A stretch of 32,000 nt of DNA from Promethearchaeum syntrophicum. GTDB taxonomy: Archaea > Asgardarchaeota > Lokiarchaeia > Sigyniarchaeales > Promethearchaeaceae. Location: the NCBI RefSeq assembly GCF_008000775.2, contig NZ_CP042905.2, positions 1,920,001-1,952,000 of the forward strand, in the 5' to 3' direction. The notes under the pieces are model-generated. The model ran no database searches, had not been told where the DNA came from, and saw only the letters and a list, made by a program, of their open reading frames with translations. Made by a program: the position numbers and the translations under genes. Of the stretch, positions 1,038-25,635 are shown in pieces (position 1 is the first letter of the stretch; the number at the start of each line of letters is the position of its first letter).

Positions 1038-1517
1038 ATGAACCGAATTATTCGCTTTAGTTTAAAGGAAGTCAAAAAATCGGGTTTAAATATTAAATTG
1101 CTCAAATTCAATAATGTAAAAGTTGATGTGAGAAGAAAAACCGAAAAACCAGCAAATATTGAACTCCTTAAAAAAATGAAGTTAGATCCTTTACCTATAG
1201 GTGGTCAAAAGAAGCCTAAAAAAGTAAAATCAACTAAATCTGCTAAAATTGAAACAGAAGTAAAGGAAATAAAAGAAAAAACAGATGACAAACCCGTTAG
1301 TAAAGAAATAGCTAAATCAGTTCCAAAAAAATCAAAAATATCTAATTTAGAAGATTTAGAAGGAATGGAGCCAAAATATTTGAAAAAATTAACTGATTTA
1401 GGAATTGATTCTCCTTCGAAGATTATGGATGAAGATTTTAAGGAACTTGCTAAATTAATTAGATCAACTCAAAAATTAATTAAAAGTTGGCGAGCTCAAA
1501 TTACTGGGGAAGAATAA
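1038..1517 (+). CDS. lysine-rich protein with C-terminal helix-hairpin-helix-like segment
   Basis: Low-complexity K/E-rich middle. The C-terminal LEDLEGMEPKYLKKLTDLGIDSPSKIMDEDFKELAKLI looks like an HhH/DUF4332-type motif. Confidence 0.45.
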   Translation: MNRIIRFSLKEVKKSGLNIKLLKFNNVKVDVRRKTEKPANIELLKKMKLDPLPIGGQKKPKKVKSTKSAKIETEVKEIKEKTDDKPVSKEIAKSVPKKSKISNLEDLEGMEPKYLKKLTDLGIDSPSKIMDEDFKELAKLIRSTQKLIKSWRAQITGEE

Positions 1518-1519: not shown

Positions 1520-2185
1520 TTAATTGGCAATTTCTGCCAATGGAGATTTTATAATATCTATTTTTTTCAGTTTTTTTAGAATTTCAGCTACTTTTTCATG
1601 TGGGATATTTGTTTTTTCTGAAATCTGAAGAGGAGATAATGATCCTCTGCAAATATTAGCAATTGATAAGTCTTCTTCGGAAATTATTTCCATCTTAAGT
1701 AATTTTTCCAAAGTTGAGTCACTCACAATTAATTTTGGTCGATTTTCTGCGATTCTTCCGTCTCGAGTTAGCATTTCGATTTCAATAATAAATGAATTAA
1801 AAATTTCTTTTTTATTCGTTTGTAAGAATTTATCTATATCCATACTATGTTTTTGCCAAAATCTCCTACCCAATGTATCTAAAACCGATAATATTTTTTC
1901 CTTAATATCATCAACATCAGATAAGCAGCATAATAAGATTTTTGCTGGATGGTAATAGTGAATTATTATACTAAATTTATCGATCATTAAAATGCGGGAA
2001 AAATTAGATAGGGCTCTATTTTCTTGTATATTAGAACGTATATCATCCATAATATCGTTGATTACTTGAAAAAAATCACCAAATTCTTTAGATTGAGGAT
2101 AGTCTCGATATTCTATAATGGATAATCCCGTTTCACCATCAATAATATAGATCGCATGCAACATCATAAAACTATTACCAACCAA
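1520..2185 (-). CDS. longin/roadblock-like (SNARE-like superfamily) N-terminal domain fused to a C-terminal winged-HTH
   Basis: The N-terminus LHAIYIIDGETGLSIIEY...ILLCCLSDVDDIKEKILSVLDTLGRRF follows the beta-beta-alpha-beta-beta-beta-alpha pattern of AP-sigma/longin/roadblock domains. The C-terminus LSIANICRGSLSPLQISEKTNIPHEKVAEILKKLKKIDIIK is wHTH-like. The true start may be one of the internal Met residues at codons 7-8. Confidence 0.5.
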   Translation of the reverse strand: MVGNSFMMLHAIYIIDGETGLSIIEYRDYPQSKEFGDFFQVINDIMDDIRSNIQENRALSNFSRILMIDKFSIIIHYYHPAKILLCCLSDVDDIKEKILSVLDTLGRRFWQKHSMDIDKFLQTNKKEIFNSFIIEIEMLTRDGRIAENRPKLIVSDSTLEKLLKMEIISEEDLSIANICRGSLSPLQISEKTNIPHEKVAEILKKLKKIDIIKSPLAEIAN

Positions 2186-2265
2186 CTTATTTATAATTGG
2201 TTGTCAGAATTATTTTTAAATTTTAATCACAAAATATATCAAACCTAAAAAGATATTATTTTTGA

Positions 2266-3552
2266 ATGAGCCAAATATTTAATAAAAAAACTAAAGCAAT
2301 CATCCTAGTCATTTTAAGCATATATTCTCCCCTTTTAATCAGTATTACAATTGAGAGTGCGAATTCTGCTAATGGCGATATTTTTTTTAATGATAATAGT
2401 TCTATCACCTATGAGCTTACTTATACTATTGAATATCAATCCTTTAGATCAGCTTCAACATTTTTTAAAGCTTGGGTCCCAAGGATAGAAAATTGGTCTA
2501 CAGATCAAACTAGTAAATTAATATCTCAAATAAATCCTGAAAATGTAATAGATCAAACTTTTGATGAATATGACATATACAATAATTCTTATGACTATTA
2601 TTACAAAGAAATGGAAGGACTAAATGGAGATCAGTCATTTTATTTGCAGTACAAATATGAGATAACCTCTTCTGGATTTAAATATGAGATTCCCGATAAT
2701 ATAACACTCGATAATTATGATACAAGCTCAAATCTTTACCAATATTATACTTCATATCAACCTTATACTGAAATAAATGATACTAATATTATGAATACCG
2801 CATTAAATGTAACAGATGGGAAATCTTCCTTAAATGAAATGATAGAAGCGATTTATTTATATGTGGTTGAAAATCTTCTCTATGAAGTGTTACCTGATGC
2901 TATTGGAGCTGCTGAAGCTCTCTCGACCAAAGTGGGGGATTGTTCAGAATATTCTTCTCTCATGGTTGCTTTATTAAGAACAGTTGGCATTCCTGCCAGA
3001 AAAGTCCTAGGAATCGCACTCACTGACGAGGATCCTGAAGAACAAATACCGAAATATGATGTAAAAGTTGGGGATGTTTGGTCTTATTCATCAGATTTAA
3101 ATAATGTTCCAGGTCATGCTTGGGTACAATATTATATCCCGGAAATTGGATGGGTTTCTGCTGATCCAACATGGGGAAATGGAGTATATAAAAATAATCC
3201 AGAATATGTTTTAGAATACCTAAATCAAATGGATTATATTCATTTAATAACTTCGGTCGGAGATTATTACGGAGTGGGGATAGAACCTCCATTAGATCTT
3301 ATTGATTCAGATGAGGAAGGAATTGCCGAAATTCCATTCGTCTATGCAATAGGGAATGCTGGATCGTCTTATTCCGAGATATCATTAACTTATGATTTTA
3401 AAGTTATTGATGTAAATTTATCAGGGGTTTCCACAATAGGAATTCCTAATATGTTTATCTTTATAGGTATCGGTGGTGGAATCTTTCTATTATTTGCCTT
3501 AATCGGAATTGCAGGTATTAGGAAAAGAAATAAAAAGGGAAATTATAGATAA
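2266..3552 (+). CDS. membrane-anchored transglutaminase-like cysteine protease domain protein
   Basis: N-terminal hydrophobic signal/anchor (AIILVILSIYSPLLISI). Transglutaminase core Cys motif GDCSEYSSLMVALLRTVGIPARKV, then GHAWVQYY...WVSADPTWG (His/Asp). C-terminal TM helix plus basic tail. Confidence 0.8.
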   Translation: MSQIFNKKTKAIILVILSIYSPLLISITIESANSANGDIFFNDNSSITYELTYTIEYQSFRSASTFFKAWVPRIENWSTDQTSKLISQINPENVIDQTFDEYDIYNNSYDYYYKEMEGLNGDQSFYLQYKYEITSSGFKYEIPDNITLDNYDTSSNLYQYYTSYQPYTEINDTNIMNTALNVTDGKSSLNEMIEAIYLYVVENLLYEVLPDAIGAAEALSTKVGDCSEYSSLMVALLRTVGIPARKVLGIALTDEDPEEQIPKYDVKVGDVWSYSSDLNNVPGHAWVQYYIPEIGWVSADPTWGNGVYKNNPEYVLEYLNQMDYIHLITSVGDYYGVGIEPPLDLIDSDEEGIAEIPFVYAIGNAGSSYSEISLTYDFKVIDVNLSGVSTIGIPNMFIFIGIGGGIFLLFALIGIAGIRKRNKKGNYR

Positions 3553-4958
3553 GTCTGAATTAGAAGTTTGATTCGTTCTTTAAATTTAGGAAAATGTCTT
3601 TCAAATTTTTTTCTTATATTTTCTTCATTATTTGTTAAAGTAAGGAGATATAGAGAATTATCATCCAAGTTAAAATGATTAAATAGAACCATGCTATTTT
3701 CCATCTGCCAAAGAGCTTGATTTTTTGTGATTAACTTAAAATCTGTGAATGTTCTGAATAAATTTTGAAAATGCGGCGCAGAAATCTCTGAAACAAGTTC
3801 AATATCTTTATCAATTGCATAATCACTTAAAATTAAAGAACTTTCATTAAGTAGAAGCATAGCTTGCGCATTTAATTTCGAAGCAAACCATTGTAATTGA
3901 GCAGCAAAAATTTCTTTATTCGGACTAAGTGCATTAATTCCTTCGGAAAATGATTTATTGAGTGAATAAGCCTCGAAAATGGAAGTGTTGAAGAAATGAA
4001 TTGTAAATCCTGTAGAGAATTCAGTGAATTTTTTCTTTAATTTTTCTAGTTTTGCTTTTAGTTCCGGAGTGTCTGAGATATCAGGATCCATTTTATGGAA
4101 ATTAATTATTATTGGTGGATATTGATTGAAGGCTCTCAATATTCCTATAAGCTTACCGAAATATTCAAAAGATTCTTCAAATCTATTATCATCGCGAATA
4201 TCAATGAAGTAAAATAATAAATTGGTATCATAAAGGTACAGATCTGCATTTTTAATATAAGATCTGCGGTATTTTTCTTGCCCTCCAAGATCCCAATCCA
4301 TTATTTGATGTCCTAATACGTTAATTTCTGATCTTTCTATCCCTTTTGTAGGTCTGATTTCAGTAAGTTCACTAAATTTTTCGTGCAATGCTCGTAAATA
4401 TGAAGTTTTTCCTGAATTTCCCAATCCCACAAAAAGAACTTTTAATTTTCTCGATAATTCAATGGGAGTATTAACTTCTGAAATATAATTCTCCACCTTT
4501 TGAGCTAAAGAATTAATTAAATCTCCAATTTCCTCATGGGAAACACCCTCATAAGCTAGCAATTTTGCTGTTTCGGCAAGCATAATTGATAGTTGTTTTG
4601 TATTTTCATAAAGGAAATATGAACGTTTATCTTCAACTAATAAGGAAATAGTAGCTGCTTTCGCTTTTCCTCTGGCAGATTCATCTTTGATTAAAAAGAA
4701 ATAGGTTAAACCAGTGAGTTCCAAATCAGGAAATGGTAAAATTCCAAAATATTTTACTGAATCGAAGAAATTTCCACCCTGGTAGATTTGTTCACCCATC
4801 AAAAGACTTATAGATTTCATCGCGATAATCATCCGATTGTCTTCAGATATAATATCTGGAACACATATCTTTGGAACTGGGCCTTCTTTTTCAAAAACAG
4901 ATAAAATTATGGTGGATGATGTTTCATTCTTGCTGGAAAAGTCTTTTGTTTCTACCAT
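3543..4958 (-). CDS. three-domain protein: FLCN/DENN-type longin-like domain + Arf/Rag-like small GTPase + C-terminal roadblock-like domain (paralog 1)
   Basis: G1 GLGNSGKT (nt 4404-4427). G3 WDLGGQEKYR. G4 HKMD (nt 4086-4097, verified on the DNA). G5 region FNTSIFEAYSLNKSFSEGINALSPN parallels RagA [22 protein letters not shown]. The C-terminal LLLNESSLILSDY... block is roadblock-like. The N-terminal ~165 aa aligns to the FLCN longin blocks (see findings). Confidence 0.75.
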   Translation of the reverse strand: MVETKDFSSKNETSSTIILSVFEKEGPVPKICVPDIISEDNRMIIAMKSISLLMGEQIYQGGNFFDSVKYFGILPFPDLELTGLTYFFLIKDESARGKAKAATISLLVEDKRSYFLYENTKQLSIMLAETAKLLAYEGVSHEEIGDLINSLAQKVENYISEVNTPIELSRKLKVLFVGLGNSGKTSYLRALHEKFSELTEIRPTKGIERSEINVLGHQIMDWDLGGQEKYRRSYIKNADLYLYDTNLLFYFIDIRDDNRFEESFEYFGKLIGILRAFNQYPPIIINFHKMDPDISDTPELKAKLEKLKKKFTEFSTGFTIHFFNTSIFEAYSLNKSFSEGINALSPNKEIFAAQLQWFASKLNAQAMLLLNESSLILSDYAIDKDIELVSEISAPHFQNLFRTFTDFKLITKNQALWQMENSMVLFNHFNLDDNSLYLLTLTNNEENIRKKFERHFPKFKERIKLLIQTYL

Positions 4959-5053
4959 CTAATTTGAGCCTCAAATTTCTTTACTTTCAAAAAATAAAAA
5001 CTAATTTAATTTAATTTATTATTTGCTAATTATAAACATATTAGGTAATTCTT

Positions 5054-5920
5054 TTGGATGATACAAAAAATACAAAAAATCTTCTCGAGAAGTTAAAAAA
5101 AGAATTAGTACTTTTATACGAATATAGTGAAAAACCTTCGAGATTTCCGATAGAATATCACTCAGGTATGGAAGTTTTAGAAGATATTAATCTCTCTAAA
5201 TCATATAATGAGAAAACAACAAAAAGAAAAGAGTACTGGTCAAAAAAAGATCATAAAATTGAAAATCAAAAAAGGGAAATGTATAAGAATTTTCAAAAGT
5301 TTCAACCCCATAATATAATCAGAAATAAAGATAAAACATACACTTATTCTCCACATGAAAGGACTTATTCATCGCTTTTCCAATGTATCAAAGATCTTAC
5401 TGAAAAATTCTCAATTGAAGATTTACTTACTGGATTCACCTGGCAAGAATTTGAACAATTTATAACCTCTGCTTTGGATCATTATGGTTATCACGCTTTT
5501 AGAACATTTAGATACACTGTAAATAAGAAACGTCATGAAGTCGATGTCATTGCCCGTGAACGTAATGATATATTGTTTATTGATGCTAAAAGGTGGAACT
5601 CTAAAACTGCAAATGAATCTGCCCTAATCAAAGCAGCTCAAGAACAATATCTAAGAGCGCAGAAGCTTGTATTAAATCCAAAAATTGCAGGCCAATTACT
5701 CCAAAAATTACATATACCAATAAATCAAAAATTTAAAAGCTGTAATATCTACTCAATTATCTTAGTTTCGAGTAATTTGAAGGAAATTATTACTGCTGAT
5801 GGGATACCTATTTTGGATTTTGCCCGATTTAATGCTTTTCTTAATAATTTTCACTCTACAAAAAGTAATTTAAAAAGTGTTAAGTTGTCCAAAGTAATAT
5901 TTCAAAAAAAACTACTATGA
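5054..5920 (+). CDS. PD-(D/E)xK superfamily nuclease-like protein (NERD/Mrr-like core)
   Basis: ...HEVDVIARERNDILFIDAKRW fits the E/D-x-D...(D/E)-x-K core of NERD/Mrr-type restriction-endonuclease folds. The ORF begins with TTG at 5054. Confidence 0.5.
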   Translation: MDDTKNTKNLLEKLKKELVLLYEYSEKPSRFPIEYHSGMEVLEDINLSKSYNEKTTKRKEYWSKKDHKIENQKREMYKNFQKFQPHNIIRNKDKTYTYSPHERTYSSLFQCIKDLTEKFSIEDLLTGFTWQEFEQFITSALDHYGYHAFRTFRYTVNKKRHEVDVIARERNDILFIDAKRWNSKTANESALIKAAQEQYLRAQKLVLNPKIAGQLLQKLHIPINQKFKSCNIYSIILVSSNLKEIITADGIPILDFARFNAFLNNFHSTKSNLKSVKLSKVIFQKKLL

Positions 5921-5927
5921 ATTATTT

Positions 5928-6953
5928 TTAAATAATTCCTTGTAGTAAAGTTATAAAAGAATCGATTTTTTCACGCAAGAGGTGTTCTCCTCTCTTAGGA
6001 GTCATAATAATTAGAAAAAGGGGTTCAGAAGCTCGTTTAATGCGGAATTGATCAGTGAAAAATCGTTTGTTTCCTCGTTCTATAATCATTGATTGTTCCC
6101 CTTGAACGTCATCTTCTAAGGAATCGTTCAGAGTAAGAAAATACGGAGTAGATTTCGTTAATATTTGCTTTGATTCTTCATTCTCGAAAAATTGTCCTAT
6201 TACCAGAGAATTAGAGTCCAAAACTAAGATTGCATTGCAATTTGAATCCAAAGATTCTGCAAATTCTTGGATTGTCTTATCTAATAACTCAGATTGCGGG
6301 AAAATTTTTAACAATAGATCTGAAAATGATGAAATAATTGACCATAAATCGTAAATTGTCGTGTTTGAATAGGAGACATTGAACTCTTCCTCAATAATAT
6401 TACGAATTTCATCTTTCAACTGTGAAATTAATCCTTCTAGATGGATTCCCTCGTTTTTCGCATAAGTTGGGTCAAATTTATGGAAAAATATGTATATTAG
6501 CGGTGAAATTTCTAATTTTCTGAATTCTTTAATTACATCCGAAAAGTATGAAATCGATTCTTCCATCCGTCCTCGATCTTGAATATCAATTACATAAATG
6601 CAGACATTAGATCTATCGAAATACTTCGTCGGCTCTTTTAAATAAGCGATACGGTATTTTTCTTGCCCCCCTAAATCCCATTCAGAAATATCATTTCCTA
6701 AAAATTCGAAAATTTTGCGTTGCGCTTGTCTAGTCGGTTTTAACATGGCAATCTGTGAAATTTCTTTTTGAAGAACCTTAATAATGCTTGTTTTTCCCGA
6801 GTTATCAAGTCCTGTGAAAAGGATCTTCTCGGAAATTTCCCGAGATTTGGTTTTTTTAATGATGAGAGTTTTTTCAAGATCATATTTTATATTCTTTTTT
6901 TTCCCATGAATATCGTGAGAATCTTGCTCAGATTGGATTTTATGTTCAAGCAT
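5928..6953 (-). CDS. Arf/Rag-like small GTPase + C-terminal roadblock-like domain (paralog 2, no longin domain)
   Basis: G1 GLDNSGKT. G3 WDLGGQEKYR. G4 HKFD (nt 6471-6482, verified). G5 NTTIYDLWSIISSFSDLLLKIFPQ. C-terminal AILVLDSNSLVIGQFF... is roadblock-like. Confidence 0.75.
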   Translation of the reverse strand: MLEHKIQSEQDSHDIHGKKKNIKYDLEKTLIIKKTKSREISEKILFTGLDNSGKTSIIKVLQKEISQIAMLKPTRQAQRKIFEFLGNDISEWDLGGQEKYRIAYLKEPTKYFDRSNVCIYVIDIQDRGRMEESISYFSDVIKEFRKLEISPLIYIFFHKFDPTYAKNEGIHLEGLISQLKDEIRNIIEEEFNVSYSNTTIYDLWSIISSFSDLLLKIFPQSELLDKTIQEFAESLDSNCNAILVLDSNSLVIGQFFENEESKQILTKSTPYFLTLNDSLEDDVQGEQSMIIERGNKRFFTDQFRIKRASEPLFLIIMTPKRGEHLLREKIDSFITLLQGII

Positions 6954-7257
6954 TGTATGTATTTTCCCCCACTCAATAAAGTAGTAGTATTATACCCCTA
7001 AAAAGTATTTGTAATTCCTTGTTTACCGATTGATAAATTTCTTAGAATATTTTTAATAATTTCGTTTTGAGAAATATTATTTAATCTGATAATTTACAGA
7101 AATTTTTTTTGATATATAAATGGAAAAAAAAGACGGCTATATAAAATAATGGGATCAATTTGAGAGGATTAATATTTGGATTGGAGTTTTTTAACCCCAC
7201 GAATTTTATGAGAGATGTTCTTCGATTATTGATAGCAATTTAAAGAGGGTATTGGGA

Positions 7258-8091
7258 TTATTTGAGAATTTTAAGTCCATTTGGTAAATCGAATGAAATT
7301 TTTTGGGAGATTTGCAGGAGGGCGGGATCTGTATACGGCAGAGAGTTTTCGAGGATTTTTTGGATGGTGGGGGTGGCTTCATGGATGAGGCGTTCAATGA
7401 GGGCGGGAGGCATGGCGGATGGGTTTGAGATATAATCGTGGGCGAGTTTTTCGACGGGAGTTTTAAAGTATTCGTAGAGGGGAGGGAGGTTTTCGTGAAT
7501 GAAAGCCTTTTGAAGTCGTTCATGATAGATTTGAACTTCTTTAATTTCGTTTGGTTTGGATTCATTTGGGTTGGATTCGAGTGTGCTGAATTTGAGCGGG
7601 TCAGATTCGAGTGTGCTGAATTTGAGTGAGTCAGATTCGAGTGTGTTGAATTTCGATGGTTCGATGGAATCTGAGTTGATGCAGTTTTTAAATAGTTTCA
7701 TACCGTGGGGAGCGAAATCAAAAAGTGTGGAGCTGTCTGTGTAATAAGGAAGTAAGTAGTGAAGAAATGGGAGTGATAAACCCGAGAGTGAGCGAATTTT
7801 TGTAGGAGTATTGAAAATAATTAATGTTTCTGATATTTTGTAATCTTCATTGAACTCATCGAAAATCTTTTTAAAATCCGTGTTTTCGGGGAAAGAGGGG
7901 AATCCTTCGAAGGAGTGGATTAGGCAGTTTTCAAATGTAAATCCAAAGAAACTGTTAGGAAAGGATGACTCTTTAACAAAGGAAAAATCTTTTATGATGT
8001 AATCCTCAACAAATAGGTGGTTATGCTGAATCTTCCCGGGTAAATCGAATGGACCGGCGATTTTAAATTGAACATAATCATCAGATCCCAT
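7258..8091 (-). CDS. hypothetical protein with internal 10-aa tandem repeats; GC-rich relative to surroundings
   Basis: I place the start at the ATG at 8089-8091 (MGSDDYVQFK...). The upstream extension of the track ORF to 8223 is low-complexity F/L-rich sequence that runs through the inverted-repeat arm. No family recognised. Confidence 0.5.
   Translation of the reverse strand: MGSDDYVQFKIAGPFDLPGKIQHNHLFVEDYIIKDFSFVKESSFPNSFFGFTFENCLIHSFEGFPSFPENTDFKKIFDEFNEDYKISETLIIFNTPTKIRSLSGLSLPFLHYLLPYYTDSSTLFDFAPHGMKLFKNCINSDSIEPSKFNTLESDSLKFSTLESDPLKFSTLESNPNESKPNEIKEVQIYHERLQKAFIHENLPPLYEYFKTPVEKLAHDYISNPSAMPPALIERLIHEATPTIQKILENSLPYTDPALLQISQKISFDLPNGLKILK
7574..7663. repeat. 3 x 30-bp in-frame tandem repeat inside CDS 7258-8091
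   Basis: gattcgagtgtgctgaatttgagcgggtca / gattcgagtgtgctgaatttgagtgagtca / gattcgagtgtgttgaatttcgatggttcg. These encode the repeated ..KF(N/S)TLES(D/N).. peptide on the minus strand. Confidence 0.9.
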
Positions 8092-8118
8092 AAATATATT
8101 ATAATAACATAAATATTT

Positions 8119-8196
8119 AATTGTTGTGGGAAGCGGAAATAAAAGCAAAAAAAGCGGAAATAGTTTGAAAAAAGCAGAAAAAAACACAAAAAAATT
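8119..8196. repeat. left arm of a long imperfect inverted repeat (pairs with 8994-9067)
   Basis: aattgttgtgggaagcggaaataaaagcaaaaaaagcggaaatagtttgaaaaaagcagaaa... compared with the reverse complement of the right arm, aattgtggggagcggaaataaaccaaaacaaaatggaaataaaagcaaaaaagcagaaa.... Identity is about 75% over ~75 nt by hand alignment, with anchored blocks agcggaaataaa and aaaaaagcagaaa in the same order. Confidence 0.7.
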
Positions 8197-8460
8197 AATA
8201 CTAAAAAATAAAATTGCTTCCAAAAAAAGATATTACCCAGCTTAAAAAGATAAATCTGTAACTCGTCTTTTTCTATCTTAAGAGGGTTCAAAATATAAGT
8301 GATTTCTAACTTTTCATCAGAAATGTTTTAAATTCATCTGCGAAGCTTCGATTTTGCCAATTTTCATGGACTTCCATTAAAAATCTCCGATATAAATAGC
8401 GAGAAAAAAAACAAATAAAAATTTTTTTTACCCCCCCCATATCACCCATACAAAAAAGAG

Positions 8461-8856
8461 AGTTGCAAATTTATCTTTGTTTTGGCTCTTTTTTTGGACC
8501 TTTTTTAAGTATAGTCTTAGATTTATCTTTGTTTCTGGACCTTTTTTAGGCAAAGTTGCAATTTTATCTTTGCTTCTGGACCTTTTACCAGGCTTTTTTT
8601 AGACTAAGTTGCAAATTTATCTTTTTTTGGGAGCATTTTGAAGCAAAGTTGCAGAATTATCTTTGCTAAAACATCATTAATGTCAAAAATATTGATTTGT
8701 CCATCTTTGTTTAAATGGTGAAATTTGAATTTTAGAGAAAAAAGAGAGTTGCAAATTTATCTTTTGGAATTAAAAATAATCGAAGTTTTTATACCCCTTT
8801 TCCGTAGTATAACCTTTTTTTTTTAGAGAAAAAAAAGAATTATAAATTTATCTTTT
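8461..8856. repeat. array of at least 7 same-orientation copies of a 19-nt motif (consensus AGTTGCAAATTTATCTTTG) in non-coding DNA
   Basis: Copies at 8461, 8513, 8554, 8607, 8647, 8747 and 8838 (spacing 52, 41, 53, 40, 100, 91 nt). The sequences between copies are also related (ctggacctttt). The shorter core TATCTTTG recurs at 8701-8709 and 8945-8953. Confidence 0.85.
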
Positions 8857-8993
8857 GGTAAAAAATCACCACGTAGATTTGAAAGTTTCATTTTTTTACT
8901 GATCCATTTCATTTGAGATTCAATATTTTTTGCATTTATTTCCGTTATCTTTGTTATGAGCCCTTGTTATTAATTCTGGGAAAGAAAAATCAC

Positions 8994-9067
8994 AATTTTT
9001 TGAATTTATTTCTGCTTTTTTGCTTTTATTTCCATTTTGTTTTGGTTTATTTCCGCTCCCCACAATT
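8994..9067. repeat. right arm of the long imperfect inverted repeat (pairs with 8119-8196)
   Basis: Contains three TTTATTTCC/TTTATTTCT units (two TTTATTTCC plus one TTTATTTCT variant), the reverse complement of GGAAATAAA. It ends ...tttatttccgctccccacaatt. Confidence 0.7.
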
Positions 9068-9132
9068 GTATGGGTAAATTTTATGGTGAAAGAATATAAA
9101 AATGGGAGAAAAAAAGAAGACGTAGGTATAAC

Positions 9133-9927
9133 CTATCGGTGAAACGAGACCATCCATGGGTATGGGCTTGGTAGTGGGTACGAAATTTGCACAAAATCCG
9201 GTTTTAGTGCAAAGAACTGGTCGTAAATCTTTCTATTGAAATTGTAGCTTTCCAATAAGCTTTCCTGCACGAACGTCCAATAGTTATTTTGAAGGCGGTC
9301 CCCCCAGTTATAATTCACAAAAGGGTACTGAGTAGCCAGATTATATGTGGATTTTTTTTTCTGATAAAACCAAGTAAAATGATAGTTCGGAACATCGTTG
9401 ATGTAATTTCCGGTCCAATGGATTCCGAATGATCCTTGAATCATTGAAGCATACATTTGATTTGGCTTATTTGTCATACCCCATACTTCCCAATTTTTCC
9501 CATCTATAGGATGTTCATTAAACAGACTCTTCACGAAGTTTTCAAGCGAGAAATCGAAAATCGGGTCGTTGTATGCGTTGTGAAGCCCAATCATGAACCA
9601 TTTAAACTCGGTCTCGGTCATAAGTGGGAAGTCTTTACCGATATGTTGACAATTCCGAAGTATTTGCATTTTTTCGGTAGGAGAATTACAAATATAAATC
9701 ATCGGCATCTTGTCAGCAAGCAGTTGCCCAGCATCCCAATCCTTTGTCTCGATATAACCTCTCTCGTATCCTCCGATCCGTTCAATCGCAACCAGATCGG
9801 TAATTTTTCCTGCTCTATTTTTTAAAGAGAGAAGAAAATCGTAGAAGATGGGTTTATTTTGCGTGCGAAGCATCTGATCAGCGATCCTTAAAGACGTTGT
9901 CATCTTATGCGTTTCACTAAATGTCAC
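9133..9927 (-). CDS. hypothetical protein (264 aa), Trp/Tyr/Asn-rich, no recognisable family; GC-elevated
   Basis: Long uninterrupted ORF with non-repetitive composition. No motif recognised. Confidence 0.5.
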   Translation of the reverse strand: MTFSETHKMTTSLRIADQMLRTQNKPIFYDFLLSLKNRAGKITDLVAIERIGGYERGYIETKDWDAGQLLADKMPMIYICNSPTEKMQILRNCQHIGKDFPLMTETEFKWFMIGLHNAYNDPIFDFSLENFVKSLFNEHPIDGKNWEVWGMTNKPNQMYASMIQGSFGIHWTGNYINDVPNYHFTWFYQKKKSTYNLATQYPFVNYNWGDRLQNNYWTFVQESLLESYNFNRKIYDQFFALKPDFVQISYPLPSPYPWMVSFHR

Positions 9928-9978
9928 TTGAACGGTTTCATCCCCGTGAACAAAGAGAAGATAATCCCAATAACCAAG

Positions 9979-11454
9979 ATGTCTTCCTCATTCAATTCCC
10001 CCATTTGGAATCAGACGTGGGATGGTTCTGCTTACGAGACTGGAACTTCGATCTGGAAGAATGAAAGTTATCTATATACAGCGGGATACACCAATAGTTT
10101 TGGAGCTGGATCTAGTGATCTCTTATTAATTAAATGGAATACTGATGGAAGCCAAATCTGGAATCGGACTTGGGGAGGCGAAGGAATAGAAGTTGGTGTA
10201 ACTGTCTGGGGAGATGAAAATTTTCTATATACAACAGGATACACCGACAGTTTTGGAGCGGGTAATTTTGATCTCTTTCTTATCAAATGGACCACTGAAG
10301 GAAATCAAATCTGGAATAGAACTTGGGGTGGTATGGACGACGATTTTGTTCGATCATTGTGGGGTGATGAAACATATTTATATACAACAGGATTGACAAA
10401 AAGTTTCAGCCCTGCAATATGTGATCTAGTCCTTATCAAATGGACCACTGAAGGAAATCAAATCTGGAATAGAACTTGGGGTGGTATGGATAGTGACATT
10501 GGTAATACTATCTGGGGGGATGAAAGTTTTCTATATACGACAGGATATACTAAAAGTTGTGGAAAAGGGGAAGGCGATCTTTTAATAGTTAAATGGGACA
10601 CCGATGGAACCCAAATCTGGAATCGGACTTGGGGTGGTACTCGTTTAGATTATGTTAATTCCGCATGGGGAAGTGGTTCGTATTTATATTTAACTGGTTA
10701 TACTGGAAGTTATAGTACTAATGATTATGACCTATTTCTAACAAAATGGGACATCGATGGAAATTTAATTTGGGAACAAATATTGAAAGGTTTTAATTAC
10801 GATAGAGGTAAATCTATTTGGAGTGATGGACTAAATTTATATGTACTTGGGACATTAAATACTTTGGGACCAAATATACGGGATTTCTTATTAATTAAAT
10901 GGGATACCGATGGTAACCAAATTTGGAACCAAACTTGGGGATACCCTGAAGATGATTTCGGCTATTCTATTTCGGGAGATGAAATATATTTATATCTGGT
11001 GGGGCATACTAAAAGTTCTTTTGTGAATGAGGGTGCTCTCTTTTTATCTAAAATTCATAAAACTGTTCTTCAAAAACCAATTTTCCAACACATTTCTCCA
11101 AATCCAGATCCCGATGGCAATATAACCTTGAATTGGAATAATGTTGCTGATGCTACATCTTACAGTCTTTATCGAAATACAAATCAAATTCCCAAAATAT
11201 CTGGTTTAGCACCGATTTCGGTATCTGCGACTACATCTTACTCAGACAATAATTTAACGAATAATACGTATTATTATGTAGTAGTTGCTAAAGATGAATA
11301 TCGAAAATCAGATATATCGAATTGTGAATTGGTGGAAGTGCAAATAGTCCCTCCGATTCCTAAAGAAGGTGGAATTTCTGGTTTTCCGTTTGGTTCTCTA
11401 TTATCTATTTGGAGTATGAGTATTATTTTCCTATTAGTAAAGAGAAGAAAATAG
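9979..11454 (+). CDS. surface protein: seven-blade SBBP-type beta-propeller + FN3/Ig-like domain + C-terminal TM anchor with basic tail
   Basis: Seven ~51-aa repeats of the form W(N/E)(R/Q)TWGG..D.G..IWGD..YLYTTGYT.SFG.G..DL.LIKW.T.GNQI. Then NITLNWNNVADATSYSLYR...YYYVVVAKDE (FN3-like). C-terminus SGFPFGSLLSIWSMSIIFLLVKRRK. I prefer the ATG at 9979 over the track start at 9907, which would overlap the divergent gene. Confidence 0.8.
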   Translation: MSSSFNSPIWNQTWDGSAYETGTSIWKNESYLYTAGYTNSFGAGSSDLLLIKWNTDGSQIWNRTWGGEGIEVGVTVWGDENFLYTTGYTDSFGAGNFDLFLIKWTTEGNQIWNRTWGGMDDDFVRSLWGDETYLYTTGLTKSFSPAICDLVLIKWTTEGNQIWNRTWGGMDSDIGNTIWGDESFLYTTGYTKSCGKGEGDLLIVKWDTDGTQIWNRTWGGTRLDYVNSAWGSGSYLYLTGYTGSYSTNDYDLFLTKWDIDGNLIWEQILKGFNYDRGKSIWSDGLNLYVLGTLNTLGPNIRDFLLIKWDTDGNQIWNQTWGYPEDDFGYSISGDEIYLYLVGHTKSSFVNEGALFLSKIHKTVLQKPIFQHISPNPDPDGNITLNWNNVADATSYSLYRNTNQIPKISGLAPISVSATTSYSDNNLTNNTYYYVVVAKDEYRKSDISNCELVEVQIVPPIPKEGGISGFPFGSLLSIWSMSIIFLLVKRRK

Positions 11455-11471
11455 TCCTTGTAGTTTTTATC

Positions 11472-11482
11472 TTTTTTTTTTT
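11472..11482 (+). terminator. oligo-T tract (T11), candidate archaeal intrinsic terminator
   Basis: T11 run 18 nt downstream of the stop at 11454. Confidence 0.35.
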
Positions 11483-11771
11483 ATCGTATCTTTCAGAAAG
11501 TCTATAGTAATCATCAAATCTTTCTAATTTCATCAGAAATATTTAATGAATTAATTGGTAAAGACATGGTTTATGATAACAAACTTTTCCATACAATCTC
11601 CCTCCCTCCAGTTATTTCAATGATACTTTATCACAAATTTTTTGATAAATCGTTATTAAATTCTTCATCTCTTATTTTTTCTGTTTAGAATATAGGGAGA
11701 GACTATAAGAACTAAAGTTAAAATTAATTTTCTTAGATTATTTTGAAATTATAATTGAGTTTGATTAAAAG

Positions 11772-12311
11772 ATGGGATTAGAATGTAGCAAATGTGGATT
11801 AAAAATGGAGACCAAACCTCTAGATTGTGGGTATAGTATGACTATGAACAATGAAACCAACCAATGGGAATGTAATATGGGAAAATGTGGAGTAATTTCG
11901 TTTGAAAATTTTCTCTGTGAAAATTGTTGTGTCAACAGTAGTATAATGGAAATTTTTAATGGATTTGAGCGCTTAGCGAAAGAAAACCTTGAATTTCGTG
12001 AAGAATTAGAAGAGTTAAAAACGACTTTTGTTCAAATTAGTTTATCAAATCCCGATTTTACGTATTGGGTGGAATTTGGGAACTGTAAATTTAAAGTTGG
12101 ATGGGGAGAAATAAGTAATGCAACAATTAAAATTAGGTGCTCTCAAGACGTTTGGAGCAAAATTCTTTCTGGGAAAGCAGTAAGTTTTATCGAATTTTTC
12201 AAAAGAAATCTTAAAATTGAGGGAGATCTTCAATATGGGGTTTTATACCTTGATTTACTTGAATTAGCTTCGGAAATTAGCCAAGATAAAGGAGTGTTAA
12301 ATAATGAATAA
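11772..12311 (+). CDS. Cys-rich zinc-ribbon N-terminus fused to SCP2 sterol-carrier/lipid-binding domain
   Basis: N-terminus CSKCG...C...CNMGKCG...CENCC. C-terminus NATIKIRCSQDVWSKILSGKAVSFIEFFKRNLKIEGDLQYGVLYLDL parallels the SCP2 block ..TI.M...DF..L..GK.....AFF.GKLKI.G.....A.KL..L. Confidence 0.7.
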   Translation: MGLECSKCGLKMETKPLDCGYSMTMNNETNQWECNMGKCGVISFENFLCENCCVNSSIMEIFNGFERLAKENLEFREELEELKTTFVQISLSNPDFTYWVEFGNCKFKVGWGEISNATIKIRCSQDVWSKILSGKAVSFIEFFKRNLKIEGDLQYGVLYLDLLELASEISQDKGVLNNE

Positions 12312-13056
12312 AACTGTCGTGTGGGGCCATAGGGGTGCGGGTTTTAGGGGAATCGAAAATACAATGCCATCATTTAAGAAAGCAGTTGATATGGGTGTTG
12401 ATGGTATTAAAACCGAAGCGCAACATTCAAAAGATGGGAAAATATTTTTGAGTTCTCAGGAAAGTTTAAAAAGAAATGGCGAATATGTAGCCTTTAAGGA
12501 TATGGATAGTAAAGAGATTAACAACTTAAGAACAGATAATAATAAAGAAGTTCTATCTCTCACTGAACTATTCAACGAATTTAAAGGTAAAAATATCCGT
12601 TATAATTTCGATATCAAAGAGCCTGAGATTGGTATAAAAATTATTGAAATTGCACGTCAGTTTAATTTAGTTGATAAAATCGAGTTAGCGAAAACAGCGA
12701 CGGATTCTTCTCCGCTGCCAAAAATCTTTGGTAAAATTAGAGAATTCGATCAGGATGTTACCTTAATAAATAGTTTATTTCTAAAGAATGCAACTAATGA
12801 GAAAAACCATCTCGAATTAGAGAGCATGCGAGAATTAAATATCCAAGGGATTAATGTGAAATATAATTATGCAAATTTTGAATTATTTAAATTGGTTAAA
12901 GACAACGGATTTAAATTCTATGTGTGGGGGGTCCTCTTTAATAGATCAATGCAAAAACTTTTAAAGATGAATTACAATGGTCAATCAGTAGATTCTATGA
13001 TGTCAAATTTTCCTGATCGATTAGTCCGATTAAGAAATAAATTTCAAACAAGCTAA
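12304..13056 (+). CDS. glycerophosphodiester phosphodiesterase (GDPD) family protein
   Basis: VVWGHRGAGFRGIENTMPSFKKAVDMGVDGIKTEAQHSKDGKIFL matches the GDPD N-terminal HRG...ENT...A...G.D.iE.D...skDg signature. It overlaps the upstream gene by 8 nt (ATGAATAA). Confidence 0.75.
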   Translation: MNKTVVWGHRGAGFRGIENTMPSFKKAVDMGVDGIKTEAQHSKDGKIFLSSQESLKRNGEYVAFKDMDSKEINNLRTDNNKEVLSLTELFNEFKGKNIRYNFDIKEPEIGIKIIEIARQFNLVDKIELAKTATDSSPLPKIFGKIREFDQDVTLINSLFLKNATNEKNHLELESMRELNIQGINVKYNYANFELFKLVKDNGFKFYVWGVLFNRSMQKLLKMNYNGQSVDSMMSNFPDRLVRLRNKFQTS

Positions 13057-13159
13057 GAATTTTTTAACTAGCAAATTTTTTTATCCTACTTTTACACCCA
13101 TAAAGATTATTGTAATTTTTTCCTTGATTTTGAGTAATTCTTCAAAATTCATTATTAAA

Positions 13160-13681
13160 TTAAGGTTTTATGAGGTTATTTAAAATATTTATTGCTTCTT
13201 CGGGTGTTTGAGCGTTAATTATTTCATCTTTTCTTTTATTATCGATTTTGCTATCTGCTAATTTTGCCGACCATCCACCAGTTGTGCTTAGTGAGACAAT
13301 TTTTTTGCCCATTTTCCAAGCAAAAGCAATTTCGCTTAATGTTCCACTCTCACCAGCGATTGTAATAATTGCATCTGCAGTGGATACTAAAATTAAATTG
13401 CGTGCTTCCCCCATCCCAGTCGGAATGATGAGATCAACATAACTATTGGCAGATTTTTTATCTAAACTAGGAAGGAACCCAATCGTAAAACCTTGCTCGG
13501 ATTTTGCCCCTTTACAGACTGCCTCCATTACACCAAATCGACCTCCACAAACTAAAGCAAAATTTTCCTTTGCAATTAATCTTCCCAATTTTTCGGCAGT
13601 TTTGTAGATTTCGTCATCTAATTCTCCAGAGCCAGAGCCTATTACTCCTATTAGACCATTAAATTCAGAAAACTGTTTCAA
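13160..13681 (-). CDS. LOG-family / TIGR00725-type Rossmann-fold protein
   Basis: IGVIGSGSG..., VCGGRFGVMEA and AGESGTLSEIAFA correspond to the GGGxxGxM and PGGxGTxxE motifs of the LOG family. Apparent TTG start overlaps the upstream stop (TTGA). Confidence 0.7.
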   Translation of the reverse strand: MKQFSEFNGLIGVIGSGSGELDDEIYKTAEKLGRLIAKENFALVCGGRFGVMEAVCKGAKSEQGFTIGFLPSLDKKSANSYVDLIIPTGMGEARNLILVSTADAIITIAGESGTLSEIAFAWKMGKKIVSLSTTGGWSAKLADSKIDNKRKDEIINAQTPEEAINILNNLIKP

Positions 13682-14664
13682 AAATATTCCTCCAAAAGAA
13701 TTTCTTCATTTTCTCCATATTTTAAGCGAATTTCATTTTTATCTTGGACTTCTCCAATTTCATAGAATTTCATATTTGCATTATACACTAAGTCAATTAA
13801 TTCATTTTTCGTTTCATTTTTACCAGATATCAAAAATCCAGAGGTTAGAAACAAGAAAATGAATTGTTCAGTAGAAAATTGTAAATTATCTGAAATTATA
13901 TGTGATTCTAAAATATTTAAATCAATTTTTGCTCCTAGTTTCGCATATTGCATCATCTGGAATAAGGTTCCCAGAATCCCCCCATTGGATATATCCTTAC
14001 ATGCTGTAATATATTTCTTGTCAATTGCTGGGGATAAAAATGATCGTTTATGGAAAAATTCCTCACTGCTTTTCATAGTGATTGTGTTCCAATAATTTTT
14101 ATTTGTAGCTGACGTTTTTCCATCAGGATCCCAAACAACTGCTAAAAAATCACCTGAATTTGATCCTCCTGCTGATAAATAATGTTCTACTGTAGTATTT
14201 CCAATGATTGTCGAAGAGATTGCTAAAGATGGAGAATCTGTAGTTGTATGACCGCGAATTAATGGAGTTTTAAAAACTTTTGTTGCGTCTAATACCCCAG
14301 AAAAGATTTTTTTACCAATATTATCATCGCCATATGCAATTGTAATGGTACTTGCTAAAGGAGTTCCACCACAAGCAAAAATATCATCAATTCCAACATA
14401 AATCGCTGAAAAACCAGCACCATATGGGGATTTTTCGATAAATGTTGGGAGAAGTGCATCGGTTGTTAAAAGGATTAAATCTTTAGATGTGGGTGTTAGC
14501 TGAATTGCTGCTGAATCTTCACCATGACTTGCATAAATTTGTGAAGAATTATAGCCATTTGCGCGAATCTTTTCTAATATTGGTATTAATTTTCTCTTTT
14601 CTTGAATATTTCTTGAATTTTCAAATTTATCAACAATTGAATGTAAGTTCATCTCTTTAATCAT
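13678..14664 (-). CDS. AIR synthase-related protein (PurM/ThiL/HypE/SelD superfamily)
   Basis: HGEDSAAIQL...LLTTDAL...GFSAIYVGIDDIFACGGTPLA is the N-terminal ATP-grasp-like PurM-family dimerisation/active-site pattern. The C-terminal domain CKDISNGGILGTL is typical. Confidence 0.7.
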   Translation of the reverse strand: MIKEMNLHSIVDKFENSRNIQEKRKLIPILEKIRANGYNSSQIYASHGEDSAAIQLTPTSKDLILLTTDALLPTFIEKSPYGAGFSAIYVGIDDIFACGGTPLASTITIAYGDDNIGKKIFSGVLDATKVFKTPLIRGHTTTDSPSLAISSTIIGNTTVEHYLSAGGSNSGDFLAVVWDPDGKTSATNKNYWNTITMKSSEEFFHKRSFLSPAIDKKYITACKDISNGGILGTLFQMMQYAKLGAKIDLNILESHIISDNLQFSTEQFIFLFLTSGFLISGKNETKNELIDLVYNANMKFYEIGEVQDKNEIRLKYGENEEILLEEYF

Positions 14665-14753
14665 TAGCTTTCATTTGTTATATGATTTTTTTAATTTTTT
14701 TTTTTTAATTTTTGCCTAAAATTTATCTATGATAACGCAAGATAATTCAATTA

Positions 14754-16280
14754 ATGAAAAAAAATTTACTCTTTCCATTTGACGATTTATTGGTTAAAGG
14801 AGCGATCTTTTCGATCTATGGAAGCATGGGTCCTGAGGCTGTTTTTTTTTATCCATTTCCTAGCGATTCAACATATTCTTTTCCAGAAATGGATAATCAT
14901 GCATCCAGTAAATTTGAACAAAGGAATTACATGCAAATTGCGGTTAAAAGTATTTCTTTGCTTTTAGTTGATTATTCTTTTGAAGATGAAAAGAATCTCC
15001 AACTGAAAGATGTTCATATATTTGGAGTTTTGCCCTATCCCGATTTAAATTGCATTGGTCTCACATATTTTACATATTTCTTCTCCCAAGAAAGAAAAAG
15101 GTTTATTCCTGTTTCTCTTTCATTACTAGTTCATGAAAATAAAAGGAGTTTTATCTATGATTCGATTAATCGGTTGAAAAAACCAACAAAGGATTTTACA
15201 CAATATTTAATCGAATTATGTATTAAAAATAAGATATATTCAGAACTTGAAGGACAAGATTATTGGGAAAATGTATTAACTAAATTTATTGATTTCTTTG
15301 GTGAAATTCAAAAAATACAGAATCAACCAATCAGCCCAATTACTAAAAAGAGAAGGATTAAGATATTATTTACAGGTTTGGAGAATACAGGAAAAACTAG
15401 TTTTATTTTAACAGTCAAACGAAAATTTAGCGGATTACCAACAATTTTACCGAGTACGGAACCAATGAACGAACCTTTAAATTTCTTAGGAACAACGATA
15501 ATGAAATGGGATATTCCGGGTAAAAAAGATTTCAGAAAAGCTATATTAGAAAATTCTGAATTATATTTATTTGAATCTGATGTTATTTACTATTTTATTG
15601 ATGTTATGGCCCCTAGAATAGATGAATCTCTTGAGTTTTTAGCGAAAGTTATGGATAAACTGCATGAATATGAGAGTAAAATTCCGATTGTCTTCATAAT
15701 TACGAAAGTTGATGAAGATGTCGCAGATTCCATTGAAATTAAAGATGCTATCGCTGAAATACGGCAATCACATCTAAAAATTATTGGAGATCATCCATAT
15801 AAATTCTTTAACACTTCCATATTTTCGATTTACTCAGTGTTAAATGCATTTTCATATGGACTTCGCAATCTATCCCCAAACCGGGAAATGATAGAACATC
15901 TTTTATGGGGATTTTTGGCTCGGAATGAATTTGTTACTGGTTTATTAGTCAATGAGAGCGGTTTAGTCCTTGCTGCACAACAAGTTAATGTCAAAGGACC
16001 AGAAGATGTCTTAAACCGTAAACAAATTTTTGAAATTGCCGCTCCACAATTTGCAATACTTGCTAAACAATTCCAAAGTTTTGATGATAAGATTAGTGAT
16101 ACAATAAAATACCAATTTTCGGAAAAAGATATAATCATTTTGAAGCGATTCATTGTTGAAGATTTTGCATTTTTCTATATATTTTATACAAAAAAACCAG
16201 AATCATTGAAAAATTTAGAAAAAAACTTTCCAGAATTTCTTGATCGGATAAGAAATCTTCTCTTGCTATATATTAAATAA
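14754..16280 (+). CDS. three-domain protein: FLCN/DENN-type longin-like domain + divergent Arf/Rag-like GTPase + roadblock-like domain (paralog 3)
   Basis: Collinear with paralog 1 over the full length: AIFSIYGSMGPEAVFFYPFP / MQIAVKSISLLLVD / FGVLPYPDLNCIGLTYF / LSLLVHENKRSFIY. G1 GLENTGKT. G3 WDIPGKKDF (nt 15510-15524, Gln replaced by Lys). G4 TKVD (15702-15713). G5 FNTSIFSIYSVLNAFSYGLRNLSPN. Roadblock-like GLLVNESGLVLAAQQ. Confidence 0.7.
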   Translation: MKKNLLFPFDDLLVKGAIFSIYGSMGPEAVFFYPFPSDSTYSFPEMDNHASSKFEQRNYMQIAVKSISLLLVDYSFEDEKNLQLKDVHIFGVLPYPDLNCIGLTYFTYFFSQERKRFIPVSLSLLVHENKRSFIYDSINRLKKPTKDFTQYLIELCIKNKIYSELEGQDYWENVLTKFIDFFGEIQKIQNQPISPITKKRRIKILFTGLENTGKTSFILTVKRKFSGLPTILPSTEPMNEPLNFLGTTIMKWDIPGKKDFRKAILENSELYLFESDVIYYFIDVMAPRIDESLEFLAKVMDKLHEYESKIPIVFIITKVDEDVADSIEIKDAIAEIRQSHLKIIGDHPYKFFNTSIFSIYSVLNAFSYGLRNLSPNREMIEHLLWGFLARNEFVTGLLVNESGLVLAAQQVNVKGPEDVLNRKQIFEIAAPQFAILAKQFQSFDDKISDTIKYQFSEKDIIILKRFIVEDFAFFYIFYTKKPESLKNLEKNFPEFLDRIRNLLLLYIK

Positions 16281-22175: not shown

Positions 22176-22242
22176 GATATTTCTTAATTTACCTTAAGTA
22201 ATTAAATTTTTAGGATAAGATTGAATATTTAAGGTAATAATC

Positions 22243-22641: not shown

Positions 22642-22673
22642 ATTTAAAACTATAAAAAAAAATCAAACATTTC

Positions 22674-23231: not shown

Positions 23232-23331
23232 GGTTAAATAAATCATGTATTGTTAATGAATAATTTTCATTTAGATTAGAAGTAAAAAAAAAATCTGGAC
23301 AATCAAACATAGAGATTTTGAAGTAAATAGA

Positions 23332-24591: not shown

Positions 24592-24649
24592 TTTTTACAC
24601 CTTTAATTATATTTTTTTTTTTGTAATTGTATTTTTAAAAAACTGGAAG

Positions 24650-25600: not shown

Positions 25601-25635
25601 AATTTAGCCTCTTTAGAATTTTTAATTAATTTGAA

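Follow-up and report, generated by a model that had tools for sequence, protein, structure and literature searches.

A gene neighbourhood conserved across Lokiarchaeia with three Rag/Gtr-type GTPases and a candidate built-in longin GAP

The locus described here lies in a 32-kb stretch of the Promethearchaeum syntrophicum MK-D1 genome (the window; ~30% G+C). It is a copy of a gene neighbourhood conserved across Lokiarchaeia and carries three ancient Rag/Gtr paralogues; this much is secure. The paralogues, designated LGR1, GR and LGR2, consist of a G domain followed by a roadblock domain, preceded in LGR1 and LGR2 by a longin domain. A fourth gene, LwH, encodes a longin domain and a winged helix-turn-helix (wHTH). 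The locus is, in our judgement, best read as a conserved module, a switch of Rag type whose longin GTPase-activating protein (GAP) is built in; we assign this reading a probability of about 0.55. Rag GTPases and longin GAPs (FLCN and GATOR1) form the core of eukaryotic amino-acid sensing, and the module would offer a model, open to test, of the origin of the Rag nutrient switch of eukaryotes.

Three Rag/Gtr-type GTPases in the MK-D1 window

The sequence-only reading of the window had described four open reading frames (ORFs), three of them paralogous genes for a GTPase core with a roadblock-like C-terminal domain. All four are present at the coordinates and on the strands that it gave (Table 1), and the paralogy was confirmed. 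LGR1, GR and LGR2 are ~30% identical to one another overall, and Pfam Gtr1_RagA (PF04670) is the top family for each, with E values of 1e-23, 2e-26 and 5e-18 (84.3, 93.5 and 65.9 bits, respectively; cut-off 22). Arf is the runner-up with 61.8, 71.5 and 42.4 bits, 22-24 bits under Gtr1_RagA, and the sole match in an NCBIfam scan was the generic small_GTP domain, below its cut-off. BLASTP comparison of the C-terminal domains alone (E 2e-11 for LGR1 and LGR2, 1e-5 for LGR1 and GR) indicates that these are homologous as well.

The AlphaFold2 (AF2) model of LGR1, built from a 69-sequence alignment with a mean predicted local distance difference test (pLDDT) score of 78.8, consists of three domains: an N-terminus of longin topology, a G domain, and a C-terminus of roadblock topology (aa 348-468). 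In a Foldseek search of this model against the PDB, entry 8YL2 ranked first. RagA and Gtr1 followed at E values of 1e-17 to 1e-19 and RagC at ~1e-13, with alignments of ~300 columns through the G and C-terminal domains (TM 0.7-0.8 by target), while Arf and Arl structures reached 1e-9 to 1e-10 over ~180 columns only. Chain A of 8YL2 ("LokiRagO") is 100% identical to GR, and its deposition title describes a homo tetrameric RagA-like small GTPase of an Asgard Lokiarchaeota in complex with GTP. The roadblock fold of the C-terminal domain thus has its support in the AF2 topology and in GR itself as a solved structure. The best profile, the structural alignment of LGR1 with RagA, Gtr1 and RagC, and a published tree all place the G domains with Rag rather than with MglA or Arf. 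The identity of the three proteins as Rag/Gtr-type GTPases is secure.

The GTPases and their architecture are already known as Asgard signature proteins. They belong to the 74 small GTPases of MK-D1 surveyed by Tran et al. (2024; PMC10933270), whose Supplementary Fig. 6 lists WP_147663355 (LGR1) as LGR, WP_147663364 (LGR2) as XGR/LGR and WP_147663357 (GR) as XGR among the Rag-like proteins, and in which the N-terminus of LGR1 is already annotated as "L" (longin). In Table S3 of Vargova et al. (bioRxiv 10.1101/2024.02.28.582541), all three are RagGtr members by tree, WP_147663364 being marked as "divergent"; the paper keeps RagGtr apart from both ArfR and ArfL. In our literature search, no paper was found that describes the LokiRag depositions 8YL2, 8ZLA or 9M28. 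Nor did the search yield an account of a conserved RagGtr gene neighbourhood or a description of the longin motif signature in the LGR fusions reported below.

The nucleotide-binding motifs (Table 1) had been read from the sequence as a mixture of Arf-like G1 and G3 with a Rag-like G4 and post-G5 segment. The last of these holds for all three proteins, which align with RTSIWDE...LIPN of RagA. The Arf-likeness of G1 and G3 is a fair description of similarity: in a pairwise sequence search of the PDB with GR, Arl3 and Arl2 were nearest (E 6e-16, G domain only) and RagA came next (E 2.5e-11, with an alignment reaching into the C-terminal domain). LGR2 deviates in G1 (GLENTGKT), G3 (WDIPGKKDFR) and G4 (TKVD). 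An evolutionary Arf/Rag chimera was dropped as an explanation, the Arf-like motifs being similarity within a protein of the RagGtr clade. Membership in the Arf family was likewise discarded, since Arf ranks only second among the Pfam families, LGR1 and LGR2 begin with a longin, and all three proteins have a roadblock domain. Membership in the MglA/MglB system was rejected because the roadblock domain is fused and published groupings put the proteins outside the MglA groups. The proposal that HKxD at G4 is a Rag hallmark stands in part. RagA does carry VHKMD and the MK-D1 copy of LGR1 has the histidine. Across orthologues, His is found in 48/48 GR sequences and in just 18 of 79 LGR1 sequences, against 58 with Asn, and it is absent from the LGR2 family, which has Ser or Thr.

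Longin domains of LGR1, LGR2 and LwH

An additional N-terminal domain of ~165-200 aa in LGR1 and LGR2 had been overlooked in the sequence-only reading. The two domains are homologous to each other (E 3e-13 pairwise; 1e-43 profile-profile) and under strong constraint, and that of LGR1 has longin topology in the AF2 model. Longins of the GAP type (FLCN, NPRL2 and SMCR8) are distinguished by a GP motif at strand β2 beside an arginine finger; C9orf72 has the GP only, and non-GAP longins are without the GP motif (PMC12290439). In LGR1, a GP motif (G26-P27) is invariant in 81/81 orthologues, and an arginine (R96) in the β4-β5 loop is invariant in 80/80.

Profile-profile alignment places both elements at the GAP-longin positions. 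With hhalign, LGR1 81-134 aligned with FLCN 149-204 (E 1e-3), where FFLIKDESARG lies opposite FFIKDSLARG and R96 opposite R164. LGR1 17-37 aligned with SMCR8 58-79 (E 1e-3), where the GP lies opposite G68-P69, and a second collinear segment puts R96 opposite R147. The scores against FLCN and SMCR8 were both above 200/200 shuffled controls; the human FLCN, SMCR8, C9orf72 and RagA query sequences were 100% identical to PDB chains. Pfam Folliculin (PF11704) matches 10/11 LGR N-terminal domains, all below threshold (best E 1.6e-4). The link to FLCN comes from these profile-profile comparisons and Pfam, because a profile of the LGR N-terminal domain searched against PDB sequences gave noise only. 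By its fold, GP motif and arginine, the LGR1 longin appears to be of the FLCN/SMCR8 type, and a GAP activity is predicted for it from these sequence features.

LGR2 differs at the arginine and in switch II. Its GP motif is present in 23/23 orthologues, the arginine finger is not conserved, and an arginine at the position equivalent to R96 occurs in the three Promethearchaeum sequences only. The switch-II glutamine, which is kept in 80/80 LGR1 orthologues, is also present in 22/23 LGR2 orthologues, mostly as WDLGGQ. MK-D1 LGR2 instead reads WDIPGK (aa 252-257), a Gln to Lys change unique to MK-D1 among the 23 sequences; two other Promethearchaeum metagenome-assembled genomes (MAGs) have WDIPGQ. 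Judging from this substitution, the MK-D1 copy of LGR2 may be hydrolysis-deficient.

The assignment of a longin and a wHTH domain to the 221-aa LwH protein was borne out by its AF2 model (pLDDT 90.2), which shows a β-β-α-β-β-β-α-α arrangement followed by a helical wHTH with a short hairpin, and by Foldseek matches to the longins of Sec22b (TMt 0.70) and VAMP7, AP sigma subunits and LAMTOR proteins. NPRL2 and NPRL3 of GATOR1 were matched over ~250 columns, and the Pfam Longin match was at E 0.15 only. The family is small: exhaustive searching with HMMER gave 57 clusters at 50% identity. Neither the GP motif nor the loop arginine is present in LwH, whose profile did not rise above noise against FLCN, SMCR8 or the LGR longin; on these grounds it was dropped as a GAP-type longin. 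The TTG from which the 221-aa ORF is counted is probably not its true start, and an ATG at 2167 or 2164 (within 2164-2185 of the window) is likely. The NCBI start lies 6 codons downstream, and orthologues begin opposite M8 ("MIH/MIY").

Gene neighbourhood of LGR1 across Lokiarchaeia

Synteny was scanned in one genome per species at 80 LGR1 loci (numbered with an L prefix), to which the window proteins were compared by tblastn. Counts are given as loci with the gene near LGR1 over loci with enough flank, and those for SLOG, AIRS and LGR2 are lower bounds, as the 10-kb flank often ends before the gene. The recurring order is archaeosortase H, LGR2 (-), an AIR-synthase-like gene (AIRS, +), SLOG/TIGR00725 (+), GR (+), a Zn-ribbon-roadblock gene, Mrr/NERD (-), NrdD or an ATP-cone remnant in some cases, LGR1 (+), a transglutaminase-like gene (-), LwH (+), an HhH protein gene and a 170-aa protein gene. 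This order is kept in dozens of species-level Lokiarchaeial genomes at ~40% protein identity (26-50% across the shared proteins). Mrr, upstream of LGR1, was found near it in 59/61 loci, including those of L. ossiferum and Harpocratesius, GR in 46/49, LwH in 54/59 and the transglutaminase-like gene in 51/61; SLOG was found in at least 37/43, AIRS in at least 29/40 and LGR2 in at least 25/38. Conservation of the neighbourhood in related genomes, on which the earlier proposal of a functional cluster depended, is thus strong. A few loci (L007, L061 and L073) were without any synteny.

Most of the locus records are titled Promethearchaeota; a few carry Hod-, Hermod-, Thor- or Bathyarchaeota or bacterium labels, which we did not use as evidence of a wider distribution. 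L033 (DATKTW010000091), which has the whole cluster, is filed as "Nanopelagicaceae bacterium", and L061 (WJJB01000124), which has LGR1, as "Bathyarchaeota"; both are probably MAG binning or labelling errors.

The remark that these do not look like isolated genes holds for the arrangement across genomes, which goes beyond chance, and does not hold for the clustering within MK-D1, which is unremarkable. Three small-GTPase genes within 12.7 kb would occur by chance with P 0.75 when all 74 genes are considered, and with P 0.06 for the 26 roadblock- or longin-fused genes. MK-D1 clustering was therefore dropped as evidence by itself, and the argument for a joint cluster rests on cross-genome conservation.

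Between GR and Mrr, most Lokiarchaeial clusters (L006, at 7300-8310, and 58 of the loci L008-L087) encode a protein in which a linker rich in Lys joins a Zn-ribbon and a roadblock domain; one orthologue is above the Robl_LC7 threshold. The gene is not at this locus in MK-D1 or its close relatives. In L026, L068 and L086, the space between Mrr and LGR1 is occupied by a gene for NrdD (anaerobic ribonucleotide reductase), 600 aa long and equipped with an ATP-cone. Some genomes have an ATP-cone-like ORF of ~140 aa alone at this site (L006 9194-9619), and MK-D1 has neither. A 141-aa ATP-cone gene was considered as a "nucleotide sensor" of the cluster and dropped, as some of its 57 matches are the ATP-cone of NrdD at the same site. 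In Harpocratesius and L. ossiferum (L004 11450-12070, L005 11354-12010), a single-domain small GTPase of 206-218 aa with Arf and Gtr1_RagA matches and the G3 sequence "TVAGQ" is encoded between LGR1 and the transglutaminase gene.

Table 1 Features of the locus in the window and of the LGR1 protein.
Feature	Position	Strand	Description
LGR1	3543-4958	-	471 aa; QEE16479 / WP_147663355, identical to MK-D1 protein; longin-G domain-roadblock; G1 GLGNSGKT, G3 WDLGGQEKYR, G4 FHKMD, post-G5 NTSIF...SPN
LGR1 longin domain (FLCN/SMCR8 type)	4476-4919	-	aa 14-161; AF2/DSSP topology β-β-α-β-β-β-α-α (aa 16-161)
LGR1 GP motif G26-P27	4878-4883	-	start of longin strand β2 (aa 26-33)
LGR1 candidate arginine finger R96	4671-4673	-	motif D-x-x-A-R-G, β4-β5 loop
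LGR1 G domain	3924-4448	-	aa 171-345; G1 GLGNSGKT, G3 WDLGGQ, G4 FHKMD
LGR1 roadblock domain	3546-3923	-	aa 346-471; AF2 topology α-β-β-α-β-β-β-α; covered by ~300-column Foldseek alignments with RagA/Gtr1
GR	5928-6953	-	341 aa; QEE16481 / WP_147663357, identical to MK-D1 protein; G domain-roadblock; G1 GLDNSGKT, G3 WDLGGQEKYR, G4 FHKFD, post-G5 NTTIY...FPQ
LGR2	14754-16280	+	508 aa; QEE16489 / WP_147663364, identical to MK-D1 protein; divergent longin-G domain-roadblock; G1 GLENTGKT, G3 WDIPGKKDFR, G4 TKVD, post-G5 NTSIF...SPN
LwH	1520-2185	-	221-aa ORF (215 aa in NCBI); QEE16477, DSAG12_02307, "hypothetical"; longin + wHTH
170-aa protein	429-941	-	small flanking gene; syntenic in 47/52 loci
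HhH protein	1038-1517	+	159 aa; small conserved flanking gene; HHH_5 domain in orthologue
Transglutaminase-like membrane protein	2266-3552	+	Pfam Transglut_core E 9e-23; convergent with LGR1
Mrr/NERD-like nuclease-fold protein	5054-5920	+	Pfam Mrr_cat, NERD; divergent from LGR1; most constant neighbour
MK-D1 insertion	6954-13159		~6.2 kb between GR and SLOG; outside conserved cluster
SLOG/TIGR00725 protein	13160-13681	-	4-bp overlap with AIRS gene
AIR-synthase-related protein (AIRS)	13678-14664	-	4-bp overlap with SLOG gene
Archaeosortase H (ArtH)	16293-17012	-	NCBIfam archaeo_artH 286 bits (cut-off 200); left-hand border gene; beside LGR2 in many loci

In MK-D1, LGR1 and the transglutaminase-like gene share 10 bp at their 3' ends (3543-3552); elsewhere there is a gap or an extra gene between them. 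The AIRS/SLOG pair lies upstream of GR and on the same strand in most other genomes. The 6.2-kb insertion of MK-D1 is missing from its close relatives (L001, L009 and L010), in which 150-300 bp lie between SLOG and GR. It codes for a 321-aa "FSTLESDxLK" tandem-repeat protein, two proteins of 264 and 515 aa, an SCP2 protein whose N-terminus is rich in Cys, and a GDPD phosphodiesterase. GC skew is very high (0.475) over 7001-8000, the segment in which the gene of the 321-aa protein lies. The 515-aa protein (9907-11454) has repeated "WNRTWGG" units and a hydrophobic, basic C-terminal tail (GFPFG...KRRK) that resembles a sorting signal, and its gene lies 5 kb from that of ArtH; the two may be an enzyme-substrate pair. 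Further on, window positions 21090-27000 encode an M42 aminopeptidase, a flavodoxin, a class-III aminotransferase, a carbamate-kinase-like AA_kinase and an ornithine carbamoyltransferase, a set for amino-acid catabolism outside the conserved cluster.

A candidate switch module, its rivals and its relatives

In the proposed Rag-type module, each G domain would act as a GTP/GDP switch, and the roadblock domains would hold the proteins together as dimers or oligomers, as in RagA-RagC and Gtr1-Gtr2. The longin of LGR1, of the FLCN/SMCR8/NPRL2 type, would provide R96 as an arginine finger beside its GP motif. The LGR2 longin, with GP and without the arginine, would take the non-catalytic part, like C9orf72 beside SMCR8 or FNIP2 beside FLCN. 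A longin-longin pair of this kind would constitute a built-in GAP site that turns off a G domain of Rag type, belonging to the pair itself or to GR. GR is a plausible client of this site, and its crystallisation in the GTP-bound form (8YL2) is consistent with a low intrinsic hydrolysis. LwH could serve as an adaptor or regulator. The choice of partners, the GAP activity, the signal sensed and the output of the module are thus predictions of the model.

In a more far-reaching version, Lokiarchaeia would possess a conserved and autonomous precursor of the Rag-FLCN/GATOR switch of eukaryotes. Both the roadblock and the longin domains would take part in pairing LGR1 with LGR2, the arginine finger of LGR1 would combine with the two GP motifs beside it into a composite GAP site for a RagGtr G domain (own or GR's), and LwH and the neighbouring SLOG and AIR-synthase-like genes would link the switch to a metabolic signal or output. 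We put this forward as a tentative and rather unlikely proposal.

Several observations weigh against a joint module. The cluster genes are on alternating strands and do not form a single operon, and unrelated housekeeping genes are found in the block (NrdD in some loci; a methyltransferase and PGM further on), so inherited collinearity may account for some of the conservation. At the locus, just Mrr-LGR1-(small GTPase)-TGase is kept in L. ossiferum, Harpocratesius and two MAGs; GR, LGR2, AIRS/SLOG and LwH are not at the LGR1 locus of Harpocratesius and L. ossiferum. GR was deposited as a homotetramer and not as a heterodimer, and homodimers were predicted for longin-containing GTPases (Tran et al., 2024; PMC10933270). 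As for the GAP function, the Folliculin score of LGR1 (18.1 bits) does not pass the gathering score of 23.3, the similarity of its longin to FLCN and SMCR8 is at the motif level only (pairwise E ~1e-3), and most characterised longin/roadblock dimers are guanine nucleotide exchange factors (GEFs) or scaffolds (PMC10933270, introduction).

The first of these sets of observations could be explained if the GTPases were independent paralogues, born of old local duplications, kept close by inherited gene order and each working as a homo-oligomer with no joint function. Such an origin would suit the absence of an operon, the interspersed unrelated genes (the nuclease-fold protein, transglutaminase, archaeosortase and, in some loci, NrdD), the GR homotetramer and the AF2 homodimers reported for longin-GTPases. 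It would also fit a clustering in MK-D1 that is marginally non-random at most and the loss of GR, LGR2 and LwH from the locus in four genomes. Against it stands the order kept in dozens of species at ~40% identity (26-50%). At such divergence, prokaryotic gene order is usually lost outside functional units. Moreover, five cluster genes belong to the GTPase/longin/roadblock toolkit, and the longin motifs are complementary, with GP and Arg in LGR1 and GP only in LGR2. We regard independent paralogues as a possible but on balance unlikely account of the locus.

The second set bears on the fused longins, which might act as intramolecular lids or as platforms of the GEF or scaffold kind, in the manner of MglB, TRAPP, Mon1-Ccz1 and Ragulator, with the arginine in a structural role. 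The common functions of longin/roadblock dimers, the statistically weak similarity to FLCN and the lack of the arginine in LGR2 would agree with this. Both the GP and the arginine of LGR1 are, however, invariant and at the positions that define GAP longins, the GP is not in non-GAP longins (PMC12290439), and LwH, with its unrelated longin, gives no such match. A non-GAP role for the fused longins is accordingly judged rather improbable.

The sequence-only reading raised a transcriptional output as a possibility, and LwH would then be a DNA-binding transcription factor that turns the GTPase state into transcription of the cluster. Its C-terminal wHTH in a confident AF2 model, its conserved position divergent from the transglutaminase gene, and its matches to TrmB (E 0.002) and HTH_24 (E 0.003), families for which two orthologues also have precomputed matches, point in this direction. 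The LwH matches are both below the cut-offs, though, and the top multi-domain structural matches are NPRL2 and NPRL3, in which protein-protein modules follow the longin. A transcriptional output is speculation, and we doubt that LwH is a transcription factor of this kind.

A role as Arf-like membrane-traffic GTPases, suggested by the NCBI annotation ("ADP-ribosylation factor-like protein"), the G1 and G3 motifs, Arl2 and Arl3 as the best pairwise PDB matches of the G domain and the second place of Arf in Pfam, is very improbable in view of the 22-24 bits by which Gtr1_RagA beats Arf in all three proteins, the fused roadblock domain and full-length structural match specific to Rag, the RagGtr placement apart from ArfR and ArfL in the published tree, and the longin that sits in LGR1 and LGR2 where an N-terminal amphipathic helix would be.

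The co-occurrence of the three paralogues and the longin-wHTH gene across Lokiarchaeia makes the origin of the Rag switch approachable by experiment in a cultured organism for which a crystal structure is already at hand, and the GP and arginine-finger signature in the LGR1 longin points to specific protein pairs and residues (R96 and G26/P27). Should the coupling not be real, the finding shrinks to the known set of Asgard signature proteins.

Among known systems, the eukaryotic Rag/Gtr GTPases (RagA-D, Gtr1/Gtr2) are the closest to the three proteins. They share the roadblock domain directly after the G domain, the best Pfam family, a structural alignment of ~300 columns, the TSI...PN segment after G5 and, in the GR family, the HKxD of G4. 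Unlike them, LGR1 and LGR2 have an added N-terminal longin, G1 and G3 are Arf-like, and G4 is mostly NKxD in the LGR1 family and (S/T)KxD in the LGR2 family. GR is reported as a homotetramer in contrast to the obligate A/C-type heterodimer, and the context of Ragulator, TOR and lysosome is absent. The MglA-MglB system is similar in that a small Ras-like GTPase is regulated by a roadblock-fold dimer. MglA, however, is without a fused roadblock and MglB is a separate GAP, and the GTPases of the window do not score as MglA and belong to another clade. Published work on Asgard RagGtr proteins (the groups of Klinger 2016; Tran 2024; Vargova 2024/2025; LokiRagO in 8YL2 and LokiRagM in 8ZLA/9M28) includes LGR1, GR and LGR2 themselves, handled one by one, and describes MK-D1 GTPase genes as generally outside operons with roadblock or longin genes.

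For the fused longins, the relevant comparison is with the longin GAP complexes FLCN-FNIP2, GATOR1 (NPRL2-NPRL3) and C9orf72-SMCR8, whose eukaryotic clients are Rag (or Arf) GTPases. The LGR1 longin resembles them in the GP at β2 and the arginine of D-x-x-A-R-G, and LGR2, with GP and no Arg, resembles a non-catalytic partner. It differs in that the LGR longin is fused in cis to the GTPase that is its putative client and lacks a C-terminal domain of DENN or NPRL type, and the similarity is at the level of motifs. Stand-alone Asgard longins of the FLCN/SMCR8 type likewise form a class that has a GP motif plus an arginine finger, for which the client GTPase was posed as an open question (PMC12290439). 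Those are separate proteins, whereas the LGR1 fusion points to the RagGtr G domain as a candidate client. If the proposed coupling is true, the LGR fusion would serve as a "Rosetta stone" by which RagGtr is recognised as the client of the Asgard GP-motif longins.

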